A stretch of 60,489 nt of DNA from a virus (taxonomy: Duplodnaviria > Caudoviricetes). Where the stretch lies: positions 1-60,489 of IMG/VR virus record IMGVR_UViG_3300037336_000242; one strand, 5' to 3'. Numbering within the stretch: position 1 is the stretch's first letter; each line of letters opens with the position of its first letter. The notes under the pieces are model-generated. The model was not told where the DNA came from, did not search any database, and worked only from the letters and a program-made list of their open reading frames with translations. This document shows, one piece after another, positions 10,485 through 58,591 of this stretch. The position numbers and the translations under genes were made by a program.

Positions 10485-10514
10485 AAAAGCCTAGCCGCGT
10501 GCTGGGCTTTTTTT
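10485..10514 (+). terminator. Rho-independent terminator
   Basis: AAAAGCCTAGC-CGCGT-GCTGGGCTTTT stem-loop followed by a T run. Confidence 0.75.
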
Positions 10515-10774
10515 ATATCTCGGATTCGGGATTGGTCAAGCCAAACAACAACACCCTAGCTTCAAAGCTTAGTATCCCGTCACGCGGGATTGGTCGGAGC
10601 GTATGCTTTGCCCGTTCAGCAACATGATGGTATCCCGTCACACGCTGGATTATTCGATGATGATCTGGCTGGACTACCACCAAGATTCAGCATCTCGGAT
10701 TCGGGATTGGTCGGAATCACTGCCAAATGATTGGGGCAGCAAGACTGCATCCCGTAACACATGGGATTGGACTA
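10515..10774 (+). CRISPR. Leaderless degenerate CRISPR array: 5 repeats (25-28 nt), 4 spacers of exactly 32 nt
   Basis: Repeats at 10515 ATATCTCGGATTCGGGATTGGTCAA, 10572 GTATCCCGTCACGCGGGATTGGTCGG, 10630 GTATCCCGTCACACGCTGGATTATTCGA, 10690 GCATCTCGGATTCGGGATTGGTCGG, 10747 GCATCCCGTAACACATGGGATTGGACTA. Confidence 0.88.
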
Positions 10775-10793: not shown

Positions 10794-10994
10794 ATGGCAA
10801 TGACCAACAGAGAAAAGCAAGCCGCCTACCGCAAGCGAAACGCGGGGCTGATTGTAAAGGCGGTAATCACGCCACAGGCAAAAGAAGCACTTGATCGATT
10901 GGTTGCGGTTGAACCTACGCAATCACAAGGGCAAGTGATCAGTGAAGCATTGATACAGTTTAAGGACGGGAAAGATGAAAATGACACCGTTTAA
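10794..10994 (+). CDS. Small DNA-binding protein (ribbon-helix-helix-like), candidate cassette regulator
   Basis: MTNREKQAAYRKR basic helix then VKAVITPQAKEALDRL...SQGQVISEAL strand-helix-helix pattern; overlaps csf3 start. Confidence 0.6.
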   Translation: MAMTNREKQAAYRKRNAGLIVKAVITPQAKEALDRLVAVEPTQSQGQVISEALIQFKDGKDENDTV

Positions 10995-11619
10995 AGTCAC
11001 CTGCCACGTCGCCACCCCAATGCAGCTAGGCAGCCACCCGCTGCACCTAGACGGCTTGCTGTACTGGTTGGCTATCGAGCATCAAGCTGATGCACAAGAC
11101 GTGCTAGACGTTTGCCTAGACCAACAGGCGGGTATCTATAAAGCAAGCGCCTTGTGCTTTGCCCCACAGCCGCTAGAAATCGTCACCACCCGCGCCGCGT
11201 CGCATCCAACCTGCTGGAAATGGAATGAGTTTAGCCTGCCAACAAGCGCAAAAACCATTGTGCAAAAAGGTGGGCCGTACCGGTCGAGAATGACCAGCTA
11301 CACTGCCTACCAATGCAGCCAAGTCGTGTTTTTTGGCGTAGGCGATATGACCAAGATTCAGGCGTTACTGTCCACATGCAATGGTCTAGGTCGCAACAGC
11401 AACCAAGGTTGGGGCGAAATAACCGCGATTGAAATCGAGCCGATGGATCAGGATTGTTCGTGGTTTATGGATGATCAGATCATGCGGACGCTACCGCTGG
11501 ACTTAATCCCAAGCAACACAGATACAAGCCACGCGCTGCAAGGACTGGCAAGCATTGCACCGCCTTACACCACCACCGCCAAACAAGCCACACAATCCCC
11601 CGTTTTTCTAAAGGTATAA
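10975..11619 (+). CDS. csf3: Type IV CRISPR Csf3 (Cas5 group)
   Basis: PFKVTCHVATP...LHLDGLL N-terminus, Gly-rich GLGRNSNQGWG loop, MRTLP. Confidence 0.88.
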   Translation: MKMTPFKVTCHVATPMQLGSHPLHLDGLLYWLAIEHQADAQDVLDVCLDQQAGIYKASALCFAPQPLEIVTTRAASHPTCWKWNEFSLPTSAKTIVQKGGPYRSRMTSYTAYQCSQVVFFGVGDMTKIQALLSTCNGLGRNSNQGWGEITAIEIEPMDQDCSWFMDDQIMRTLPLDLIPSNTDTSHALQGLASIAPPYTTTAKQATQSPVFLKV

Positions 11620-11623
11620 CGCT

Positions 11624-12610
11624 ATGAAAACAATCTTTTTCGCTGGCAAAATCAAAACCGTATCACCGGTTGCCGTGACCGTTCCCGATACCGTCGGCAT
11701 GCCAAAAGATAGCGCCGGTAACGCCTATCTGCCTGCAAATAGCATCCGTGGCAAGTTGCGCCACAGCCTGCATGAAGCAATCGCACGCCATTATGCAGAT
11801 CAAGGCAAGCCGCTTACAGTCGATCAGCATTACATGCTTGGTAGTGGCGTAGACACAGCACGCGCACTGAAAGATACCAGCAGCAACATCGGTGCAAATA
11901 CCGCACGCCGCGCCGCCAATCCAGTATTGTCGGTTTTTGGCAATTGGGGCTTGGCTGGCAAGTTAGGCGTGGGCAGCGGCTACACTGGCACAAAGGCGGT
12001 TATTCACGGCGCGGGCGTTCGTAAGCACGTCGGCAAGGAGTGGCTAGATCAAATAATCGACCTATCGGAAATCGACTACTTAACCGAAATCCTAAGCCAA
12101 GACGGGCAAACCAGCCAAGACTCGCAACCGATCAAAGACCGCCAAAAACTGCTCAAGCGTGAACTGAAAGGCGCGGACGCTACCCGCAAAACCGAAATCA
12201 ATACTGAGCTGGCAGACCTTGATCAGCAGCTACGCGAACTCAAAGACTTGCGCACTGGGGCAAGCGAAAGCATCCAACGCCCGCTAGAAGGTTTTGAGGT
12301 GATCGACCACGGCACAACCATGCCGCACCGCATGATCTTAAAGAACCCAACAGACACCGAGCTACACACGGTGTTACTGAGCATTGCAGCGTGGGCGTAT
12401 GAGCCGATGATTGGTGGGCATCACAATCTTGGGTGCGGCAATATCGACGCAGAATGGGAAATCTACGAACAAGCATTTTTGTCGAATGCGCGTACCAAAA
12501 TTGGCACGGTCGGATTTAATGAAACGGGCTTTTTTGTCGAAGGCATTGTGTTTGATGCAGCGGCAACACTGCAACACATCACCACTGATTTTGACTTGGC
12601 ACAGGTATAA
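11624..12610 (+). CDS. csf2: Type IV CRISPR Csf2 (Cas7 group)
   Basis: YLPANSIRGKLRH, RAANPVLSVFG, LAGKLGVG, MIGGHHNLGCG. Confidence 0.92.
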   Translation: MKTIFFAGKIKTVSPVAVTVPDTVGMPKDSAGNAYLPANSIRGKLRHSLHEAIARHYADQGKPLTVDQHYMLGSGVDTARALKDTSSNIGANTARRAANPVLSVFGNWGLAGKLGVGSGYTGTKAVIHGAGVRKHVGKEWLDQIIDLSEIDYLTEILSQDGQTSQDSQPIKDRQKLLKRELKGADATRKTEINTELADLDQQLRELKDLRTGASESIQRPLEGFEVIDHGTTMPHRMILKNPTDTELHTVLLSIAAWAYEPMIGGHHNLGCGNIDAEWEIYEQAFLSNARTKIGTVGFNETGFFVEGIVFDAAATLQHITTDFDLAQV

Positions 12611-12612
12611 CC

Positions 12613-13359
12613 ATGAATGCCATCTTAGGCGCACGGCTTCGCGCAACTTTCGCGCCTGAAATGGCGAATGAAGCCCCACAAGATTGTAATTCAGACTGTG
12701 AAAACTGCGGGCGTAAGCCGTCGGAATATGGCGGCGTGGCGTATGTCAGCACGGACAGCTACAAGCGGCAATTGGCACACTGTCCCGATTGCCGACCGAT
12801 CAGCATTCAAGCCCCACAGACGCTAGGGATTGCGATTGAACCCGCTACGGGCTTTACCCTTGCCACATTCAAAGGCGGTTACTTGGTTGTCCCTGCGACT
12901 GACAAGCCATCACTACTTGTATCTGGCAAGTACCCTGCCAAAATCCACCAACACGCGGTTGACGTGGTGCCGCTTGGTGGACACGCTGCTAAAGCATGGT
13001 TATTCAGCAATCACCAAGCCGATAGCTATGTGTTAGAGCTATCGCCACGGCGTGAACGGTTTAGCCGCCATGCCATGCCATGTGACCATAATCACTTGGT
13101 GATTGCCACTACAAGCGGCGCGGCAAAAATCAGCCTATCTGACTGGCAAAATAGCCGTGACGCGCTACGCGGCATCGCCAAATACAAAGACGTGATCAGC
13201 TTGGCGCGTGGACTCACAGAGGGGCGCTTGCACTTGTCCAGCGACAAGGTACAAGCGGCATTAACACCCGAAATCATGGCGGTTTTATCCGCACTACCTA
13301 AAGACCCCATTTCGCGCTGTTTCGTGTTAGACGCGCTCAGTGGCTTGGAGGCTGTATGA
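12613..13359 (+). CDS. csf1: Type IV Csf1 (Cas8-like large subunit)
   Basis: 248 aa with N-terminal CENC...CPDC zinc finger, located between csf2 and cas6. Confidence 0.65.
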   Translation: MNAILGARLRATFAPEMANEAPQDCNSDCENCGRKPSEYGGVAYVSTDSYKRQLAHCPDCRPISIQAPQTLGIAIEPATGFTLATFKGGYLVVPATDKPSLLVSGKYPAKIHQHAVDVVPLGGHAAKAWLFSNHQADSYVLELSPRRERFSRHAMPCDHNHLVIATTSGAAKISLSDWQNSRDALRGIAKYKDVISLARGLTEGRLHLSSDKVQAALTPEIMAVLSALPKDPISRCFVLDALSGLEAV

Positions 13360-13886
13360 ATCACTTATTTGCACTAAAGCCGCACAATGAAGCGCACAAG
13401 GCGGTTATGGCTGTTTTGCACAAGACAGGGCAAGACTGGAAAACCAAAGGCACGCGCAAAATTCAGTTTGCCAATCTTGGCAGCCTGATCTTGGTTCGCA
13501 CCAATCAGCAGCCAACAGGCATCCCGTGCAAAGCAGATGCGCCGGTATTCAGCACAGGCCAACGCCTAACGCTACAGGTCATCCTACCCGCACAAAAACG
13601 GGCGCGGGACTACCGCACAGCACCCGCAATCCGCACACAGTCAGAAATGAATGATCTTGCATCGGCATTGCTTGCTGAAAATGGCTTGTCTGTGGATAGC
13701 ATCGAGGGCAAGCCAGCACATTCTGCTTTTTTCAAAAAAGACGGTCGGACAACGGTTATTGCTGCAATGCACTTTGTCGCCACCGCCACCGTTACCGACC
13801 CGCAAGCCCTTGCGATTGCCTATACCCAAGGCGTCGGCCGCGAGAAATCGTTAGGGTTTGGCATGCTCATTGTGAAGGAGGTTTGA
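13356..13886 (+). CDS. cas6: Cas6 (Cas6e/Csf5-like) crRNA-processing endoribonuclease
   Basis: C-terminal VTDPQALAIAYTQGVGREKSLGFGML G-rich loop. Confidence 0.88.
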   Translation: MNHLFALKPHNEAHKAVMAVLHKTGQDWKTKGTRKIQFANLGSLILVRTNQQPTGIPCKADAPVFSTGQRLTLQVILPAQKRARDYRTAPAIRTQSEMNDLASALLAENGLSVDSIEGKPAHSAFFKKDGRTTVIAAMHFVATATVTDPQALAIAYTQGVGREKSLGFGMLIVKEV

Positions 13887-13888
13887 TT

Positions 13889-15796
13889 ATGTTTGATCTA
13901 GTTAAAAAGGCGTTCGCGCCGACTGGTTTTTTGGTCGAGCAAGGCGGGCGGCATACGCCAGAACAAGGCAACTACGCGCTATCCGTAGCCGTAACCCTGC
14001 TATCACAAGGCAAGATGAATCTAAGCCTGTTAGAAGCTGAAACAGGCGTAGGAAAGTCGCTAGGCTACCTGATTCCTAGCTTGATCTGGTTGGCTCAAAA
14101 TCCCAAAAAACAGATTGTGGTCAGCACGTTTACCCGCGCACTGCAAAAGCAATTGATCGACGAAGATGCACAGAAAGCCTGTCAGTTTTTGGTAGCCAGT
14201 GGCTTGCCCGCTGTTAAGGTCGCCTACAGAATGGGCAAGGCTTCGTTTTTCTCAATTGATCGTGTGGCACTCCTGATTGCTGAAATTCAAACCGAACAAA
14301 ACAAGGCTTTGCTGCATGAGTTTTACCAGTACGCGCTGCATTCAGCATCACATGGTTCTGGCCTGTGGCGTGACTGGATCGACGAACACGGGCAGTTTCC
14401 ATGCGACATTAGCCCCAACAGCATCGGCTTGATTGGCGACCAAACCAGCATCGCTTATGAAGCGCATCTGACCGCGTCCAAAGAAGCCCAACTGCTGATC
14501 ACCAATCACGCCACCATGCTGATTGCAGTTAGCCGCAAAATCCTAGACCTTGATCGGGTTCACGCCATTATTTTTGATGAAGCACACGAACTCGAAGCAG
14601 CGGCCAAAAGTTTCTTAAACACCCGCCTAAACTTTACCGAGCTACTGAGCAAGACGCACGGTATGGATGGACACGCCGCAATCGCTGACTTACTAAAACA
14701 GTGGACAGAGGATCTATCCAGCCACGTCAACAAAAGCCTGATCAATAGCGAACACCCCGCGCTTATGCTACAGCAGCAGGGCAACGCTGAAAAACTGCTT
14801 GACCTGCTAAAAGGCACGCTAGGCAAACTAAGCACCAAGCAACGCAAGGCCGACTCTGGCATCGAGCTTGCCGAACTTGTCGAGCGAGTCGGTTCGTGGT
14901 GCGCCGGTGCGGAAAGCACGCAGCGTAAGGCAATCGCGTTTTCTGACAAAAAGTCTATTCCTAGCCTTGCGATGGTTTCGAGTGCGGCCGCGCCTTTCCT
15001 ACGCAATCTGTTTGAGCAACTGAATAGCAATGTGATTATGACCAGTGCAACACTGGCAGATATGCAGCCGCAAACATCGTTTTTTAACATCAAATTCAGT
15101 GCAGGTTTGCGTGACTTTACAATCTGCCAAGAACGGCGTTATAGCCCTAATCAGTACGGCACAATGACATTCGCAGTCACTGAGTATGAAGGCGGTATCT
15201 TTAGCGGTAAAAGTGACGATGAAGCTGATGAAGTTTGCTACAGCGCGGCATGGCTCAAGCAAACAGCAGAAACAATCATGTCAAGCCGTGGCAAGACGCT
15301 AGTGCTGGTTCCGTCATTTCGTGAGGCCAAGTTATTGGCGGGTTTGTTGCCAAAAGATCAGGTGATTTGTCACCAGCCAAACCAGCCAAACTACCAAGTC
15401 ACACAGACGTTAATCAGTGGCGATAGTCGTATCCTCATTACGCCGTCATGCTGGGAAGGGGTCAATATCCGCAATGCCGACGGTTCGCAGGTTTTAGAGA
15501 CGATTGTGATTAGCCGCATTCCCTACGCGCCGCCTGATTTGGTGCGCCTTACTGCACTGAGCAACTACCTAAAGGACAAGTCAGAGGCAAACAAAATCAT
15601 CCATCTAATGTCACGCCAAGCCGCGTTACGCAAGGTCAAGCAGGGTATTGGGCGCGGCATTCGTAGCCCAAATGATCGGGTGCATGTAGTCTTTTGCGAC
15701 CCGCGCATCAAGGCGGCGCGGCATGCAATCCCTAAGCGGTTTGTGGCGGCGTTTGATCTGGCAGTCAACAAGGGTAAAATCACCAATGTTTTTTAG
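13889..15796 (+). CDS. dinG: CasDinG (Csf4) 5'-3' helicase
   Basis: EAETGVGKS Walker A, IFDEAHE, SATL, WEGVN, KQGIGRGIRS; GGAGG RBS before ATG 13889. Confidence 0.93.
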   Translation: MFDLVKKAFAPTGFLVEQGGRHTPEQGNYALSVAVTLLSQGKMNLSLLEAETGVGKSLGYLIPSLIWLAQNPKKQIVVSTFTRALQKQLIDEDAQKACQFLVASGLPAVKVAYRMGKASFFSIDRVALLIAEIQTEQNKALLHEFYQYALHSASHGSGLWRDWIDEHGQFPCDISPNSIGLIGDQTSIAYEAHLTASKEAQLLITNHATMLIAVSRKILDLDRVHAIIFDEAHELEAAAKSFLNTRLNFTELLSKTHGMDGHAAIADLLKQWTEDLSSHVNKSLINSEHPALMLQQQGNAEKLLDLLKGTLGKLSTKQRKADSGIELAELVERVGSWCAGAESTQRKAIAFSDKKSIPSLAMVSSAAAPFLRNLFEQLNSNVIMTSATLADMQPQTSFFNIKFSAGLRDFTICQERRYSPNQYGTMTFAVTEYEGGIFSGKSDDEADEVCYSAAWLKQTAETIMSSRGKTLVLVPSFREAKLLAGLLPKDQVICHQPNQPNYQVTQTLISGDSRILITPSCWEGVNIRNADGSQVLETIVISRIPYAPPDLVRLTALSNYLKDKSEANKIIHLMSRQAALRKVKQGIGRGIRSPNDRVHVVFCDPRIKAARHAIPKRFVAAFDLAVNKGKITNVF

Positions 15797-15911: not shown

Positions 15912-16299
15912 GTATCCCGTCAGGTGCGGGATTTAGCGGAAAACATACGCCCGCAAACTGGCAAACAAGGCGTATCCCGTCAGGTGCGGGATTTAGCGGA
16001 AAAGTGACTTGATTGTCACTGTTACCCTTTTGTATCCCGTCAGGTGCGGGATTTAGCGGAGTGTTAAGGCGTTACAAGACCAACGACTCTAGTATCCCGT
16101 CAGGTGCGGGATTTAGCGGTTGTCGAAGCATTCAGGTTGCCAGAGTGCAAAGTATCCCGTCAGGTGCGGGATTTAGCGGAACTGGTAGATTTGGTCGGGT
16201 TCGATCGGTTGGTATCCCGTTAGGTACGGGATTGGTCGGTCTTGTCCTTCACCAAGTCGAGCGTAACCCGCGTATCCCGTCGTGTACGGGATTGGTTGC
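15912..16299 (+). CRISPR. CRISPR array: 7 repeats of 28 nt, 6 spacers of 32 nt
   Basis: GTATCCCGTCAGGTGCGGGATTTAGCGG identical at 15912, 15972, 16032, 16092, 16152; variants at 16212 and 16272; exact 60-nt period. Confidence 0.98.
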
Positions 16300-42597: not shown

Positions 42598-43421
42598 GGC
42601 GCAATCACCCCTGTGGCCGTGTCACCTGTTAGCGGGTCGGCCACGATACGGACGGCATCATCTAGCTGCGACTGCGTCACCAGATCACCAAGGTTCTGGT
42701 CTTGACCGCCATTGCTGCCGCCCATTGCACCTGTTGCCGCATCCCACCCATTGTCAGTTGTCGCATCCCATTCAGCAGTCAAGCCCACCACCTGCGGCAC
42801 AAGCCCTAGCATGGTCACAGTGACGGTAATAATGTGCATGTTTTTGGCTTCACTGCTTACCAAATCAGGAAACAGATTGTTTTCAAAAACAACCATCTGC
42901 CACTGATCAGTAACGCCATCGCCTAGATCATAAGTAACCAGAATCCGTCGCTTATTTTCGTCAGTCATGTACGCGCAAAACTGATCGGCAATCGACGCGG
43001 CATCATGCGGGTTTGTGCAAAAGTAGGCAATCTGAGCGCGTACTGCTTTGGGTACGGTACGCATTTGGACAATGCGGCCTTGCGGGTCGTTTGGTAGCGT
43101 TGTTTCAATCCAGTACGGGATACCGCGCACTTGGTCAAGTTCAGGCGGGGCTTCAATCGCGGCGACGCTGGTAAGCATCACAGGGATAAATGCCGTTGTG
43201 CCACCCGTCACATTGGCACTTTCCGACTTACGCCACTCGGTCAACATGCCCTCTGCATCGTCGATCAGTTGGGCTTTACAGGCGGCCACCGCTTGCCTAA
43301 ACGGGCGTTCTTTCCACGCGGCGGCAAACTTAGTCTCAGGCTTGCACCACGCTCGAAAGTCGGCCAAAACAGCCACCCATGCGTCTTGAATGCACTCTAG
43401 TGGTGATAACGGACGCGCCAT
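42594..43421 (-). CDS. Putative tail completion/terminator-like protein
   Basis: Follows head protease in late operon; family not firmly recognised. Confidence 0.45.
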   Translation of the reverse strand: MARPLSPLECIQDAWVAVLADFRAWCKPETKFAAAWKERPFRQAVAACKAQLIDDAEGMLTEWRKSESANVTGGTTAFIPVMLTSVAAIEAPPELDQVRGIPYWIETTLPNDPQGRIVQMRTVPKAVRAQIAYFCTNPHDAASIADQFCAYMTDENKRRILVTYDLGDGVTDQWQMVVFENNLFPDLVSSEAKNMHIITVTVTMLGLVPQVVGLTAEWDATTDNGWDAATGAMGGSNGGQDQNLGDLVTQSQLDDAVRIVADPLTGDTATGVIAP

Positions 43422-45311: not shown

Positions 45312-45433
45312 CCTAGTGTAGGATTTCAGCCACCCAATAAATGCGAACAAATGGGGTGGCGAGTTAAGTGGAATTCGCATTATCAGTCACTAGGCTACTG
45401 ACGCATCCGAGGATGCTTCCACCTAACCCGCCA
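45312..45433 (-). promoter_or_regulatory. c4 target leader (a1/b1-a2/b2 switch) of ant mRNA
   Basis: mRNA has GCCTAGTGACT (45385-45395) and ATGCGAA (45374-45380), complementary both to c4 and to downstream TTCGCAT (45341-45347) and CACTAGG (45312-45318, at the RBS). Confidence 0.8.
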
Positions 45434-45486
45434 AAACGGGTATGAAACCATTTTCAGCACACACGCTAAAAAATGACTCAAGATAG

Positions 45487-45567
45487 GCAATAAAAAACCG
45501 CTTACGCGGCCTTTCGGCCTAGTGACTTTGCAGGATGCGAAACCTGACACCCGATTTTGCGGGTGCA
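45487..45567 (-). ncRNA. c4-like antisense RNA
   Basis: Hairpins CACCCG-CAAAAT-CGGGTG and CAGG-TTTCGCAT-CCTG, single-stranded AGTCACTAGGC, then CCGC-GTAA-GCGG-TTTTTT. Confidence 0.8.
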
Positions 45568-49537: not shown

Positions 49538-49622
49538 AAAACACCCCTTTTGGCTTCATCATCGGTGCCTAGCCACCACGCTAGACAGATGCCCCACGGT
49601 AATTATGGGGCATTTCGATTGA

Positions 49623-54225: not shown

Positions 54226-55070
54226 GCTGCACCCCTTGCCATTCCTGCAATCCAAGCAGGTACAGCACGACCCGCCGCCGCCATCGCGTCGCAATACTCA
54301 GTCGGATTTAAAAAGGGATCAGGCCATTCCATGGTTACCGCTTCACGCTGCACCAATGACTCAATTTGCCGCTGTTTGCGCTCTGCCAGCTCAGCATTCA
54401 GCCGTGCTTGTTTTTCCGGTAGTGACTCGGCGCCCATCGAAAACATCGCTTTCATCGCTGCAATTTGTGCCGCCGCCGCGCCCGCAATCGGGGCAGATTC
54501 AGATTTGATCTGTCCGATCATGGCCACGACTTGTTTTTGCTCGATTGCAGTCATCGGTTGTGTCTGTTCGATCTGTTGCATACGCTCTGCACGGATTGCA
54601 GCGGGTTCGTGCCCAAGCGACATAAACCACTCTGGTTTTTTGCCAGACATTTCGGCACGGGTCACAATCTGCGAGTAAGCCTCTTTAAAACCTTTTGAGT
54701 GGTCGAAAGAATGCTTACCGTCGTTAAGCGCTCTCACAGCGTCCCACGCCTGCCCAATCTCTGGGATGGTACGAACGGTCACGGACTCGTCTTGCGCGGC
54801 CATAGCGAGGCTTAGAGCGCGTTCTGGGCTAGGGTATCCAGTGCCGCTAACGTCCTTTGCAACTTCGATCAGTTCGCCCATCGCAATTCGCCGCCCTTGC
54901 ACAGCTACTTGCTCGATTGAGCGACGCGCTACGTCGTAACCGTAAGGGGTTAGTAATCGACCAATCATTTTTAAAGTGGTCGGCTCAAGCGATTGGCCGT
55001 TCAGCATTTGCCACGCGCCTGTCAACAGGTCGGCAATTTCGCGTTTTTGGTCTATCGTCATTTCGATCAT
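54222..55070 (-). CDS. Replication-associated protein (lambda P-like position)
   Basis: Directly downstream of initiator; PSPERAL...DESVTV...FKEAY...W.MSLG pattern. Confidence 0.6.
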   Translation of the reverse strand: MIEMTIDQKREIADLLTGAWQMLNGQSLEPTTLKMIGRLLTPYGYDVARRSIEQVAVQGRRIAMGELIEVAKDVSGTGYPSPERALSLAMAAQDESVTVRTIPEIGQAWDAVRALNDGKHSFDHSKGFKEAYSQIVTRAEMSGKKPEWFMSLGHEPAAIRAERMQQIEQTQPMTAIEQKQVVAMIGQIKSESAPIAGAAAAQIAAMKAMFSMGAESLPEKQARLNAELAERKQRQIESLVQREAVTMEWPDPFLNPTEYCDAMAAAGRAVPAWIAGMARGAA

Positions 55071-56047
55071 CACCAAGGCTCTCCATTCGGGTTTTGAGCA
55101 CATAGCTCATCAATCGCATTGCGTGAGGTGCGGGATTGCTCGACCCGCTTGATATCTTGGCGGGTGATCTGGCGGCCAGTGAGGTACTGGGTGCGGATTG
55201 CTTGGGCATCGGTAATCATCAAACCGACTGGGTGAGTTTTTTGCAGATAGAACGGGGTGTCGAGATTGATATAAAAACGCGCTAGGACAGGTGCAAGCTC
55301 GATACCAACCACATCAACAAACTTACTGATCTGGGTATTGATCTGAGCGTTACGCAGTGGCTCGATGCCGTAGCGGTTGAAATACGCATTTGCATAGGCA
55401 TTCCATGTATCCGCATTGCCCTGCTGTTTTTCGGTTTTGACAGCCACAGCTTTTGACCGTTTTGGTTTCTCGGTGACTTCGATTGGTTCTGGTTTTGACA
55501 GCTCCAACACTTGCGCCTTGAGCGCTTCGATCTGACCTTTCAAAGACTGATTTTCTGTCTCTAAAATTTCATTCGATTTTTTTAATTCAGCGATAGCGAT
55601 AGCGTCATCGCAATGTTTGTTTTGTTGGTTGGTTAGTTGTAATAAGGAAGGAAATGATGCTTTTGACACCTGACCCCTATGCTTTTGACACCTAAGGTCA
55701 TCGCTTTTGACACCTAAGGTCGCCATCTTCAGGGGTCGATTTGACACCTGACTACGGGTCATATTGACACCTAAGGTTGCACCGACATTCAGGGTAATTT
55801 CATCAGCAACCCGCACCCCATTTTTGTATGCTGATCGGGTACTGATCATGCCGTTTTGACGCAGCCATTTGACGTTACGCTTGACCGTGCTGATACTCTG
55901 ATCAATCGACTCTGCAATCGTTTCTTGCGCACGAAAACAAGTGTTAGTGTCTTTGCGGGTAAACCGTGCCAAATGCACCAGTAGCGGCTTAACGCCTGTT
56001 GGCAGTGTCGGCAATGCCTCTGCCCAATCCGTAGCTTGTTTGCTCAT
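55070..56047 (-). CDS. Phage replication initiator (lambda O-like, N-terminal wHTH)
   Basis: CFRAQETIAESIDQSISTVKRNVKWLRQNGMI; internal iterons; WNAYANAYFNRYGIEP C-terminal domain. Confidence 0.85.
   Translation of the reverse strand: MSKQATDWAEALPTLPTGVKPLLVHLARFTRKDTNTCFRAQETIAESIDQSISTVKRNVKWLRQNGMISTRSAYKNGVRVADEITLNVGATLGVNMTRSQVSNRPLKMATLGVKSDDLRCQKHRGQVSKASFPSLLQLTNQQNKHCDDAIAIAELKKSNEILETENQSLKGQIEALKAQVLELSKPEPIEVTEKPKRSKAVAVKTEKQQGNADTWNAYANAYFNRYGIEPLRNAQINTQISKFVDVVGIELAPVLARFYINLDTPFYLQKTHPVGLMITDAQAIRTQYLTGRQITRQDIKRVEQSRTSRNAIDELCAQNPNGEPW
55663..55772. repeat. Replication origin iterons: five TTGACACCT copies
   Basis: At 55663, 55685, 55707, 55741, 55764 (22, 22, 34, 23 bp spacing), next to an AT-rich tract. 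Confidence 0.85.
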
Positions 56048-56517
56048 TGCTTGACCCCATAGAATCTAACGCGGCCATCTGGCTCGCTGCAAAAAATGCG
56101 ACCGATTTGGCACATATCCCGCAAGTGTTTTTTAATCGTGTTTTTGTTGATCAGCAGCGCTTCAGCGATAACGTCACTGCTGACCAAGCCATTAGAATTT
56201 TTAATAAAATCGGCTATGGCGTTGCGCTTATCTATCACGCCTTGTCGCTGTGACTCATTGTGCGCCGCGATGCCTGTTGAGCTTAGCGCCGTGGGGTTAA
56301 AAGGGATTGCCACGCCGCTGTGGTTCGCCGGTGTAACCGCTTGCCCACCGTTCGCCAAAAACGCATTGACTTGCGCTTGCAAAAATGCAGACTGCAATTG
56401 CTTTTGTGACAGCGTATTGACTAGGCTACTTGCCCGCTTTACGTCTAGTAATTCAGCGTTGCTTAGATTCACGATTGCACCCCCAACAATTCCTTTCCCG
56501 CGTCGGTTAGACGCCAT
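56044..56517 (-). CDS. Winged-helix DNA-binding protein
   Basis: VSSDVIAEALLINKNTIKKHLRDMCQIG; start uncertain. Confidence 0.65.
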   Translation of the reverse strand: MASNRRGKGIVGGAIVNLSNAELLDVKRASSLVNTLSQKQLQSAFLQAQVNAFLANGGQAVTPANHSGVAIPFNPTALSSTGIAAHNESQRQGVIDKRNAIADFIKNSNGLVSSDVIAEALLINKNTIKKHLRDMCQIGRIFCSEPDGRVRFYGVKQ

Positions 56518-56774
56518 CCCTGTGGCAGTTCGCCATCGCCTTTAACCAGCCCCATCAGTGCAAAACCGTTTAGATACCGCTGCACACTACGAAGTGTGTA
56601 CTGATTCCCACTTTTTGTTAGTGAGTCGCGTAGGTCTACCGTGCTCATACGCGACGGATGACCCGCTTTAAGCAAAACCAGCATTGCAACCAGTCGCGCT
56701 GTAATCGCAGTTGTTGAACAATCGCGGGTGGTTGTCGCTAAGCGACTTGGTATTGCTTTAATGACTGCATTCAT
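56469..56774 (-). CDS. Winged-helix DNA-binding protein
   Basis: TLRSVQRYLNGFALMGLV...GWRLTDAG. Confidence 0.7.
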   Translation of the reverse strand: MNAVIKAIPSRLATTTRDCSTTAITARLVAMLVLLKAGHPSRMSTVDLRDSLTKSGNQYTLRSVQRYLNGFALMGLVKGDGELPQGWRLTDAGKELLGVQS

Positions 56775-56834
56775 TGCATAATCACCTTGCGTTGTTGCTG
56801 TTGTTCGGCAAACGGTTACACCCGCTTGCCACCT

Positions 56835-56866
56835 AAGCCCCGCTCATTCACTTGAGCGGGGTTTTT
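56835..56866. terminator. Strong hairpin/terminator next to solitary repeat
   Basis: AAGCCCCGCTCA-TTCACT-TGAGCGGGGTTTTT; T run on + strand. Confidence 0.7.
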
Positions 56867-56872
56867 GCTGTT

Positions 56873-56900
56873 TTGACCAATCCCGCAAAGCGCGGGATAC
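56873..56900 (-). CRISPR. Solitary CRISPR repeat unit
   Basis: Minus strand GTATCCCGCGCTTTGCGGGATTGGTCAA: 28 nt, GTATCCCG and CGGGATTGGTC identical to array repeats, perfect 7-bp stem, intergenic. Confidence 0.85.
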
Positions 56901-57081
56901 CTGCAATCCGTCCGTGAATTCGATCAGGCTACGGTGCAATCACGACTGGACTTGTTTTGGTTCGAGAAAACCGCAACAAGTAAGGAGGTAGTCGCTTGCA
57001 CTGCATCCGTTTTGCTGAACCTGCGGCACGGTTTGCTTATCCGCATCCAGCCTTAAGCCGCTGGCAGCCCACAACAAAGGG

Positions 57082-57309
57082 TTAATTGGAAAAAAAGAAA
57101 TCTACAAGCCCGTCATAAGTCAGCAAGCCGTCACTAGCATCTGCCAGTTTTCGGATGGTTTCCTTGCGCGGCTGTTTTCTTCGATAGACCAGATGAGTGT
57201 TTATGTACTTGCTGGACACGCCCGCACTATCTGCAAAATTTTGGCGATCTGGCTCATTCAATGCCCGCCAAAAAGCGTGCAAGTTCGACTGATTTTTCTG
57301 AGGCTGCAT
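57082..57309 (-). CDS. cro: Cro-like regulator
   Basis: 75-aa HTH (FADSAGVSSKYI...RKQP) divergent from repressor. Confidence 0.8.
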   Translation of the reverse strand: MQPQKNQSNLHAFWRALNEPDRQNFADSAGVSSKYINTHLVYRRKQPRKETIRKLADASDGLLTYDGLVDFFFSN

Positions 57310-57313
57310 AACC

Positions 57314-57396
57314 TACCCTATGAGTACAGACTAGCTATCAAATATACCTAAAAAGTAAGTATAAATCAACCAATTTAGTATTTTACCTTTTGGGTA
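57314..57396. promoter_or_regulatory. OR-like operators (TAC-N7-GTA) and PR-like promoter
   Basis: TACCCTATGAGTA 57314, TACCTAAAAAGTA 57345, AACCAATTTAGTA 57368, TACCTTTTGGGTA 57384; minus-strand TTGATT-N17-TATATT at 57369-57341. Confidence 0.75.
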
Positions 57397-57447
57397 TTTA
57401 AGTGCAGTATGAGTAGTCGGCTTTTGTCGGTTGCTGCGAGTGAGATC

Positions 57448-58155
57448 ATGCTTGACGATATCTATGAGGTACGCAGAAAAAACGTACTGTCCCTACAGAA
57501 ACAGTTCGGACTAGATCGGAAAGATTTAGCGGAAAAAATAGGCTTGTCTTATGCGCTAATGAGTCACTACATTGGGAAAACACCAACCAAGCGAATTGGT
57601 GACAGTGTTGCACGCAGGACAGAAGTCGCATTTAACAAACCTGAAGGCTACTTAGATCAAAACATGAGTGCATCCGTGAATCACTCGCTAACATTCCAAT
57701 CAGATATTGCGAGATATGGGCAACAGTCCCTGCTGATCGAAGGCGTGCAACCGACCCGCTTAGTGCCAGTTTTAAGCTGGGTGCAAGCTGGCAACTGGAC
57801 ACCCGCTATTGCAGCCACTGAAGCGGACGCGACCGAATGGCTGCCGTGGTATCCGACTTGTGGCAAAAATGGCTTTGCGCTGATCGTATCCGGCGAATCT
57901 ATGCTGCCAGACTTTCAGCCAGACGACCGAATTTATGTAAATCCCGATTGCGAAGTGGATAGTTTGCGCACCGGTGATCTTGTCGTGGTGTTTTGCGATG
58001 AAGACGGCACAGCCACGTTTAAGCGTCTGGTAGTCGAACCCAACAATATGCACCTAGAGCCACTGAATCCGAAGTACAAGGACGACAAGAAAATGAGCCT
58101 CAAGTATGGTTGCCGGCTTATCGGTAAAGTTGTTGGAATGCACCGTTATATTTGA
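57448..58155 (+). CDS. cI: CI-like repressor (HTH + S24 peptidase)
   Basis: N-terminal HTH, VPVLSWVQAG, SGESM, ATFKRL. Confidence 0.93.
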   Translation: MLDDIYEVRRKNVLSLQKQFGLDRKDLAEKIGLSYALMSHYIGKTPTKRIGDSVARRTEVAFNKPEGYLDQNMSASVNHSLTFQSDIARYGQQSLLIEGVQPTRLVPVLSWVQAGNWTPAIAATEADATEWLPWYPTCGKNGFALIVSGESMLPDFQPDDRIYVNPDCEVDSLRTGDLVVVFCDEDGTATFKRLVVEPNNMHLEPLNPKYKDDKKMSLKYGCRLIGKVVGMHRYI

Positions 58156-58171: not shown

Positions 58172-58408
58172 ATGGATACACACGCCTTGATGGGGCAAAT
58201 AGACGCGCTAGAAATGATTCTGGTGCCACTGGCAAACAATCAGCCAAAACTCGTATTTGAGGTGATACAGCTACTTCGCAGCAATATGCCAGAGCTGTTA
58301 AGCGTGATAGAAAGTCGATCAAAACAACCGCTTCAACACAAGGCTGGTTTCTACGCAGAAATATCAAAAATCGAAAAAATCTGCACCGACTTATCAGTTT
58401 CGCCGTAA
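58172..58408 (+). CDS. Hypothetical protein downstream of cI; C-terminus supplied by mini-IS
   Basis: AGAGG RBS, ATG 58172; stop lies inside the 46-bp element. Confidence 0.6.
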   Translation: MDTHALMGQIDALEMILVPLANNQPKLVFEVIQLLRSNMPELLSVIESRSKQPLQHKAGFYAEISKIEKICTDLSVSP

Positions 58409-58440
58409 AACCTCGTCCTTTAGGTCGAGGAGGATGTCAA
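58395..58440 (+). mobile_element. 46-bp miniature IS200/IS605 derivative (solo hairpin)
   Basis: 58411-58440 identical to 478-507; preceded by TTAT then CAGTTTCGCCGTAAAA, a left-end-like sequence. Confidence 0.75.
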
Positions 58441-58591
58441 TGCTGGCAATGGAGTCCAGCACACCGTCTTAGCTTTAACTGAGCAGCCATTTTTTTAATA
58501 ACAGCCTTAATTTCAGGAAGATGGATCAAGCCCTGATAGGTTTGATTGTCCGAATTTTCATTTTTCACGTCTGACACGTCGCATCCCCCAC

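Follow-up and report, generated by a model that had tools for sequence, protein, structure and literature searches.

Is a single repeat-like stretch that lies far from the arrays of a CRISPR-carrying phage a genuine CRISPR repeat, and if so, what might it do there? The question is raised by IMG/VR virus record IMGVR_UViG_3300037336_000242, which was analysed as a whole (60,489 nucleotides, nt; called the window below). It encodes a type IV-A cas cassette with two arrays and also carries one isolated repeat, the solitary CRISPR repeat unit (SRU), on the minus strand behind a cro-like gene. The record is linear with a CheckV completeness of about 70%, and a salt-lake metagenome, the only public run with this DNA, is its probable source; no RNA run with this DNA was found. 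Our analysis identified the SRU as a genuine, non-random solitary repeat that belongs to the type IV-A (Cas6e-type) family of the phage's own repeats. The SRU and the two arrays with which it was compared are located as follows.

56873..56900, minus strand: solitary CRISPR repeat unit, consisting of GU, a 7-bp stem, a 5-nt loop and the 7-nt tail UGGUCAA (sequence, fold and covariance model)
15912..16299, plus strand: CRISPR array 1, with seven repeats of 28 nt at a 60-nt period and six spacers of 32 nt (repeat analysis)
10513..10774, plus strand: degenerate mini-array, five units spaced by about 58-60 nt, immediately before the cas genes (repeat analysis, fold and model)

The SRU is the 28-mer GTATCCCGCGCTTTGCGGGATTGGTCAA, read from 56900 to 56873. 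A search of the window with up to three mismatches gave no other match to it, and none of 100 shuffles produced any match. The conserved block GTATCCCG was detected 11 times in the window against 0.88 expected; seven of these sites were in array 1, two in the mini-array, one in the SRU and one at position 43116. The conserved 3' block CGGGATTGGTC, with at most one mismatch, occurred eight times against 0.90 expected. Repeats 1-5 of array 1 end in TTTAGCGG, repeat 6 (r6) in TTGGTCGG and repeat 7 (r7) in TTGGTTGC, while the mini-array units terminate in TTGGTCAA or TTGGTCGG. The first mini-array unit and the SRU end in the same 13-mer, CGGGATTGGTCAA.

The predicted fold of the SRU had the same shape as those of the array repeats, with identical dot-bracket strings (2 nt, 7-bp stem, 5-nt loop, 7-nt tail), and an energy of -11.7 kcal/mol compared with -9.0 to -9.9 kcal/mol for the array repeats. 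A covariance model was trained on 10 array and mini-array repeats, with the SRU left out. This model recovered the SRU at full length with 22.7 bits, which made it the top match outside the training set in the window, at rough E-values of 6e-4 for the whole window and 4e-6 locally. The plus strand also matched the stem because the stem is palindromic; the flanks were matched on the minus strand only. No second repeat scored above 3.7 bits within 200 nt of the SRU. In Rfam, no family reached its threshold at the SRU site, and a sub-threshold match to CRISPR-DR28 (14.5 bits) was at noise level. In the contigs of the source run the region had only one form, and the SRU site was free of differences.

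The SRU shares with the phage's own repeats the 5' octamer, the 7-bp stem, the size of the 5-nt loop and 11 nt of the 3' side, and differs from the array repeats in the loop sequence. Compared with the nearest array repeat, r6 of array 1, eight of the 28 positions differ, and positions 1-8 and 16-26 are identical. Six of the eight differences fall within seven central positions (hypergeometric P = 4.8e-4). All eight are located in the loop, in one compensated closing pair, changed on both sides from U-A in r6 to C-G in the SRU, and in the last two bases. Such a pattern would result from selection on a hairpin that is bound by protein, or from descent from a sister repeat; a hairpin kept together with both flanks, and a loop free to vary, are what a Cas6-bound element would be expected to require.

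These results bear out most of what an initial annotation of this DNA, made from the sequence alone, had described: a solitary repeat on the minus strand at 56900-56873, with the length, 5' octamer and stem of the array repeats and a different loop. Its statement that the 3' block is also that of the array repeats holds in part. Exact CGGGATTGGTC was found in three mini-array units and in only one of the seven repeats of array 1 (r6); r7 is one mismatch off, and the five leader-proximal repeats read CGGGATTTAGC at this place.

The cassette that encodes the matching Cas proteins lies between the mini-array and array 1.

10975..11619, plus strand: csf3, type IV Cas5 (PADLOC, E 4.8e-45)
11624..12610, plus strand: csf2, type IV Cas7 (PADLOC, E 6.1e-45; Pfam)
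12613..13359, plus strand: csf1, type IV Cas8-like (PADLOC, E 3.3e-11)
13356..13886, plus strand: cas6 (Cas6e-like), presumed to encode the nuclease that binds and cleaves the repeat hairpin (PADLOC; Pfam)
13883..15796, plus strand: dinG/csf4 helicase, type IV-A (PADLOC, E 2.2e-120; Pfam)

Csf1, Csf2, Csf3, Cas6 and DinG were all identified by PADLOC and arrays are present, so that the cassette is a complete type IV-A system. No adaptation genes (Cas1/Cas2) were seen among the open reading frames (ORFs) of the cassette. When the phage Cas6 was aligned with 22 relatives (23 sequences in all), its His14 and C-terminal G-x-G-R...G-x-G loop proved invariant or nearly so, and the enzyme is therefore probably active. 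Among solved structures its sole matches were to E. coli CasE, at an E-value of about 0.2 and over the C-terminal half. This type IV-A lineage is rare. The protein search gave two relatives of Cas6 at 61-63% identity and three of Csf2 at 74, 49 and 39%; only 41 cluster representatives matched Cas6 at E <= 0.001 among 1.84 billion; and the best Csf2 match in PLSDB, on an Acinetobacter megaplasmid, was 41% identical.

Some further observations were made on the repeats. The mini-array begins right after a terminator at 10485-10511 and stops just before a 66-amino-acid (aa) ORF and csf3. It alternates two hairpin types, the standard GTATCCCG... unit and a shorter ATCTCG-GATT-CGGGAT unit that keeps only the 3' arm and the tail. 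Between its first spacer and the leader of array 1 (15902-15872, minus strand), 20 of 31 positions agree, perhaps by chance. A weak repeat-like 28-mer (15.8 bits, E about 0.05) lies at 55116-55143 on the plus strand, inside the 3' end of the O-like gene listed below and antisense to it; a 12-nt run that includes loop bases is common to this 28-mer and the leader-side repeats.

The phage is temperate and contractile-tailed, with recognised genes for portal, large terminase, tail sheath and baseplate. The minus strand carries almost all genes between 57309 and 16303. The surroundings of the SRU, at the start of this leftward gene block, are as follows.

57409..58155, plus strand: CI-like repressor with a C-terminal S24/UmuD-like part (phrog_4, E 1.8e-35; phrog_811)
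57341..57369, minus strand: match to a PR-like sigma-70 promoter, TTGATT-17-TATATT (consensus match only, 9/12)
57082..57309, minus strand: cro-like small repressor of 75 aa, first gene of the early leftward operon (phrog_35, E 1.8e-5)
56932..56944, minus strand: 'half-repeat' CGTGATTGCACCG, a chance-level 9/13 match 31 nt upstream of the SRU
56835..56873, plus strand: strong G+C-rich hairpin with a 9-bp core at 56838-56861, terminator-like, T-run on the plus strand only
56806..56831, minus strand: third hairpin, in the 5' untranslated region of the next gene (predicted only, from the minimum free energy fold)
56469..56774, minus strand: orf101, first gene after the solitary repeat, a winged-helix regulator by predicted-structure and feature lookalikes only
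56044..56517, minus strand: orf157, with a weak helix-turn-helix/MarR-like C-terminus (family search)
55070..56047, minus strand: O-like replication initiator (family search)

The CI-like gene is located at the right end of the record and is divergent from the cro-like gene, which is followed by a gap of 307 nt, orf101, orf157 and the O-like replication initiator. For orf101, no sequence relatives were found among 5.8 billion proteins. The SRU lies within the gap, 181 nt downstream of the cro stop codon and 98 nt before the next ATG, and no minus-strand terminator was predicted between cro and the SRU. Its sense orientation to the cro transcript, its position upstream of the replication genes and its distance of about 40 kb from the cas genes (40.6 kb to array 1) are thus as originally described. 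The PR-like promoter was the single match of the promoter scan, against 1.6 expected in shuffles, with a score no better than that of shuffles; therefore its position and not its score argues for a promoter. Two 13-nt near-palindromes, TACCCAAAAGGTA and TACTTTTTAGGTA, were noticed at 57346-57396 (minus strand) between the CI-like and cro-like genes. TACTTTTTAGGTA overlaps the -10 element of the PR-like promoter, and both are candidate operators, recognised by eye only.

The intergenic RNA of 307 nt is unusually structured (z = -3.61 for its minimum free energy fold). The initial annotation had placed a strong hairpin 6 nt from the SRU. Such a hairpin is present, starting 11 nt past the SRU (8 nt if A-U pairs are added), and the terminator scan called it, with 12 pairs, for the plus strand alone, which is antisense to the early operon; as part of the early transcript (minus strand) it has no U-run. 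It is therefore better read as a plus-strand terminator than as a piece of the repeat unit. Since its T-run is on the plus strand only, it may end a small RNA antisense to the orf101 leader, for which there were a weak promoter, recognised by eye, and a likeness to the sar antisense RNA. The latter was at noise level (17.8 bits against a gathering score of 43) and, being below threshold, is not evidence.

The half-repeat CGTGATTGCACCG was also found 31 nt upstream of the SRU, as annotated; as a pseudo-repeat it was rejected. A 9/13 match was reached at 0.39% of all window positions (about 0.02 after offsets are taken into account), two equal matches lie within 60 nt downstream, and the covariance model found nothing at CGTGATTGCACCG. 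A decayed three-unit mini-array was rejected as well. The units at -59 and +61 match at 12/28 and 13/28 positions, with background P of 0.07 and 0.03 before offsets, and the model found nothing there.

Two other features were noticed in the gap. Between the SRU and cro, a perfect Shine-Dalgarno-like TAAGGAGGT is located at 56981-56989 on the plus strand, 6 nt before a TTG, and its complement CCUCCUUA is present in the early transcript; TAAGGAGGT is either the Shine-Dalgarno sequence of a tiny antisense ORF or an anti-Shine-Dalgarno element. A 40-aa ORF (56924-57046, minus strand) with a weak ribosome-binding site and without a family match ends 23 nt before the SRU. If it is real, its 'small gene then repeat' layout would echo the acr-racr bicistron discussed below.

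Known solitary repeats offer the closest comparison. Viral solitary repeats act as RNA anti-CRISPRs (Racrs) that bind Cas6f and Cas7f, and solitary repeats of every CRISPR type except VI are known in viruses and plasmids, according to PMC10651486. The SRU has the attributes by which SRUFinder defines solitary repeat units and Racr candidates, namely a repeat match, an intergenic position on a mobile element and no adjoining (partial) repeats. It resembles the Racrs RacrIF1 and the AcrIC5-RacrIC1 bicistron (PMC10651486) in being a single intergenic repeat mimic in a temperate phage, with sequence and fold kept and no neighbouring repeat. Co-transcription behind a protein gene is likewise possible (in one case a Racr follows a protein gene by 11 nt and is transcribed with it), and binding of Cas6/Cas7 without a complete complex may be expected by analogy. 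However, Racrs are described there as not associated with cas genes, as matching the system of the host and as usually having a promoter within 250 bp. For the SRU, the cognate cas genes and two arrays are in the same phage record, and the only minus-strand promoter match is about 440 nt upstream (57369-57341, before cro), with none within 250 bp. The SRU also differs in being of type IV-A and inside an early operon that is presumably CI-controlled, with no recognised acr gene nearby. We therefore regard it as a structural solitary repeat unit that is new in being cognate to its own phage's cas genes and in lying inside an early operon.

Other repeat-derived elements are less similar. CreA/CreR and the viral Cracr have two (pseudo)repeats around a pseudo-spacer with at least nine PAM-proximal (protospacer adjacent motif) matches to a cas or toxin promoter (10.1101/2024.10.29.618823). 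CRISPR RNA (crRNA)-like RNAs (crlRNAs) of this kind are comparable to the SRU in that a repeat-derived RNA on a mobile element reprogrammes or occupies Cas proteins. The SRU differs in that it is one repeat, with no second repeat and no target found, so that it is not a crlRNA, Cracr or CreR as defined in that work; the mini-array at 10513-10774 beside the cas genes resembles their layout more than the SRU does. The virus-borne mini-arrays of inter-virus conflicts are also CRISPR components in a virus away from a full locus; in contrast to the SRU, they have at least two repeats and a spacer against related viruses (PMC11656645). The same paper describes type IV systems as serving conflicts between mobile elements and as present in some prophages.

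Within PLSDB, the nearest sequenced type IV-A element is the Acinetobacter sp. TGL-Y2 plasmid NZ_CP015111.1, the megaplasmid with the 41% identical Csf2. Its cognate repeat was found at 34 places in at least 10 clusters over 299 kb, and at none in a reversed control; therefore type IV-A repeats disperse within a replicon. Three apparently single sites were examined, and all three were three-repeat, two-spacer mini-arrays, intergenic and co-oriented with the upstream gene; no truly solitary repeat was seen among them. The plasmid is thus like the phage in having cognate repeats scattered over the replicon, with intergenic, co-oriented sites, and unlike it in that these sites are units of several repeats at a 60-nt period, in the repeat sequence and in having none that is solitary. 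A second helicase/Csf2 locus was noticed near 42.5 kb of this plasmid.

On balance it is probable, judging from the sequence, that the SRU works as a Cas6-binding RNA in the early transcript, as a decoy or as a processing site. Our tentative preference within these two is a Racr-like decoy that would be held silent by the CI repressor and also be cut by Cas6; the evidence leaves this reading possible and some way from established. We prefer it because the sequence pattern suits a Cas6-bound element, because of the position in the early operon and because of the published precedents for Racrs and type IV-A systems. In PMC11519345, type IV-A Cas6 is described as remaining on the 3' hairpin of the crRNA, which has a 5' tag of 7-8 nt. 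We infer that the SRU would be transcribed from PR within the early operon that starts at the cro-like gene, so that it would be silent under the CI-like repressor in the prophage and abundant on infection or induction. The SRU RNA would form the cognate hairpin, which a Cas6 of the same family (the phage's own, a rival element's or the host's) would bind and cut at the 3' base of the stem. The 5' product would then have a Cas6-bound hairpin and no 5' tag, and would therefore tie up Cas6 and Csf2 in dead-end complexes. Such a decoy could blunt type IV-A (or related Cas6e-type) interference against the phage in the first minutes of lytic growth, while CI repression would keep it from poisoning the prophage's own system in the lysogen. 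Where Cas6 is present, severing of the cro message from the downstream regulator and replication message would be an unavoidable side effect.

Several points weigh against this decoy. The Racrs described in PMC10651486 are not cas-associated and usually have the nearby promoter mentioned above, whereas here the cognate cas genes are in the genome, the nearest promoter match is about 440 nt away, and this PR match (9/12) is no better than shuffles. That a phage should make a decoy against its own system is a paradox, to be resolved only by timing or by a rival system, and neither a rival nor a host system is known. Of the tail on the 3' side, 5/7 tag positions are kept though a pure Cas6 decoy would not need it; a conserved tail is as readily explained by a recent origin, or by a role of the downstream fragment, as by a decoy. 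Finally, the searches yielded no phage relative with which conservation of the SRU could be compared.

The same structural evidence would equally serve regulation of the phage's own early operon through a Cas6-dependent processing site, which we consider unlikely. Cutting there would uncouple cro from the winged-helix and replication message; the cro RNA would keep a protected, Cas6-bound 3' hairpin, the downstream RNA would have a 5'-OH end followed by the strong hairpin, and early gene ratios would differ between induced lysogens, where Cas6 is already present, and freshly infected, naive cells. The SRU is exactly at the boundary between cro and the next gene, in the highly structured intergenic RNA (z = -3.61), with a stable hairpin 8-11 nt past the predicted cut. 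Lambdoid phages place regulatory RNA elements (nutR, tR1) after cro, and engineered Cas6/Csy4 sites insulate genes in synthetic operons. The latter are alike in that a cognate hairpin between two cistrons is cut and decouples them; they differ in being an artificial use. On the other side, we found no natural precedent in the literature searched, the neighbouring hairpin is more simply a plus-strand terminator, and expression of the cas operon in the lysogen would have to be assumed. Decoy and processing might also be combined in a two-way coupling, in which the early message would be a Cas6 substrate processed differently in induced lysogens and naive cells and the flood of early transcript would also shut down assembly of the CRISPR complex; this we regard as quite unlikely. 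A role may also be absent. The SRU could be a relic or hitch-hiker that recombination with an array, this phage's or another element's, brought to this place, and the identical 3' 13-mer in the first mini-array unit, the two whole flanks (as recent copying also gives), the occurrence in a single genome and the many dispersed repeat clusters of the nearest sequenced type IV-A element all agree with this. However, the loop should be unchanged in a recent copy, and in an old neutral copy one would not expect all 19 of the 19 flank and stem positions to be retained. The changes cluster centrally (P = 4.8e-4), one pair is compensated and the stem is stronger, and the repeat is sense-oriented in a long regulatory gap of an essential operon. 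A relic therefore appears improbable, to much the same degree as the processing site.

In a further alternative, the SRU would be a minimal guide gene of the crlRNA kind, in which the 31-32 nt upstream, or the RNA after the 5' tag, would guide the Csf complex against a host or rival during lytic growth only. The upstream 13-mer with its 9/13 match to the 3' half of the repeat stands at the right 31-nt spacing, the 5' tag is kept downstream, the single-looking sites of the Acinetobacter plasmid turned out to be mini-arrays (3/3) co-oriented with the upstream gene, and regulatory mini-arrays have been described in phages (10.1101/2024.10.29.618823). Against it, the half-repeat is at chance level, the covariance model found no flanking repeat, and the downstream 'spacer' is the 9-bp hairpin itself. 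No target above 20-22/32 was found in the window and none for the upstream flank in IMG/VR, and the viral crlRNAs described in the same source are of types V-A and I only. A guide gene is thus very unlikely. Self-targeting by spacers of the array or mini-array or by the SRU flanks was considered separately and rejected: matches within the window reached at most 20-22/32, and none for the SRU flanks was at a promoter. The least probable explanation, to the point of being barely credible, is a hairpin with a non-CRISPR function, such as a nut/boxB-like antitermination site or another protein-binding site, with a convergent likeness to the repeat. The position after cro recalls nutR/tR1, and a 7-bp stem with a 5-nt loop would suit it. 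However, the 19 specified flank and stem bases match the repeat family exactly (4e-7 expected per window by count), and a scan of the 10 neighbouring ORFs recognised no N-like protein. The boxB loop is GNRA-like, whereas the SRU loop, GCUUU, is not. Returning to the Racr-like decoy, it shares with the other two roles proposed at first, Cas6 cleavage of the lytic mRNA and a lytic-only guide, that the data permit it; among these the guide has been weakened. A 'three-tier RNA-guided regulatory system' made of this repeat and the two arrays, which was also proposed, finds no support beyond the co-occurrence of two arrays and one repeat, and no spacer targets the phage itself.

Searches for relatives and further copies gave little. 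The phage DNA around the SRU had no matches among INPHARED phages, Cas6, the O-like protein and a Csf2 alignment found no relatives in IMG/VR, and the Cas6 alignment found none in the genome-contig and metagenome-contig collections. DinG had no matches among phage records, and the array region gave no matching repeats and no spacer targets among plasmids and phages. The exact 19-base repeat frame had no matches in IMG/VR. A looser 15-base frame had at least 114 single matches there, which on inspection were due to chance, and one record with a tandem of an unrelated unit. An intermediate 17.5-base frame gave 41 single matches in genomes and 58 stretches in metagenomes with no blastn or tblastx homology to the window; all were single except one stretch with two matches, on opposite strands. 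The stem-loop core had one match in IMG/VR, about the chance expectation, in an unrelated high-G+C phage with different flanks. A 29-nt pattern made from the upstream flank of the SRU, in which every sixth base was left free, had no match in IMG/VR. In the literature, no paper was found on a cognate solitary repeat in the own early operon of a CRISPR-carrying phage, in a search that excluded the solitary-repeat tables of PMC10651486 (IMG/VR3), which might include this record.

Two more features concern immunity and the form of the record. Rfam matches above gathering thresholds were obtained within 45352-45566 and 49548-49620 on the minus strand, namely a C4 antisense RNA (62.6 bits), isrK (64.1 bits) and a type II hammerhead ribozyme (55.2 bits). 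The first two presumably indicate a P1/P7-type second immunity region besides the CI/cro switch. A 34-nt direct repeat with an internal stem-loop occurs near both ends of the record, at 475-508 and 58408-58441 (33/34 identical). The copy at 58391-58441 is a branching point in the contigs of the source run, where the summed depth rises to 56.7 from about 18-19 on each flank; 58440 is the end of one contig and 58412 the start of another, and several short contigs share only that element. Attachment site, recombination site and dispersed repeat are all conceivable identities for it, and the way the record is joined at this place may represent just one form among several that exist. The record yielded no tyrosine integrase; as it is about 70% complete, this is uninformative on prophage integration through the repeat, an idea that was set aside.

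Known solitary phage repeats are decoys against the CRISPR systems of hosts, whereas this phage carries the matching cas genes and arrays itself, with the repeat inside an early operon presumably under repressor control. If the SRU is a relic, it still documents the dispersal of this repeat family within mobile elements. If it is functional, one outcome would be a mobile element that times an RNA anti-CRISPR by its own repressor, with its own type IV-A system active in the lysogen and rivals blunted in lytic growth. The other outcome would be natural Cas6 cleavage that regulates non-CRISPR genes; were the two-way coupling true, the CRISPR nuclease of the phage would be wired into the lysis-lysogeny switch, and the SRU would be the first natural Cas6 site acting as an operon regulator. 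Either functional outcome would add to the knowledge of type IV-A systems, which have barely been studied for their roles in phages.

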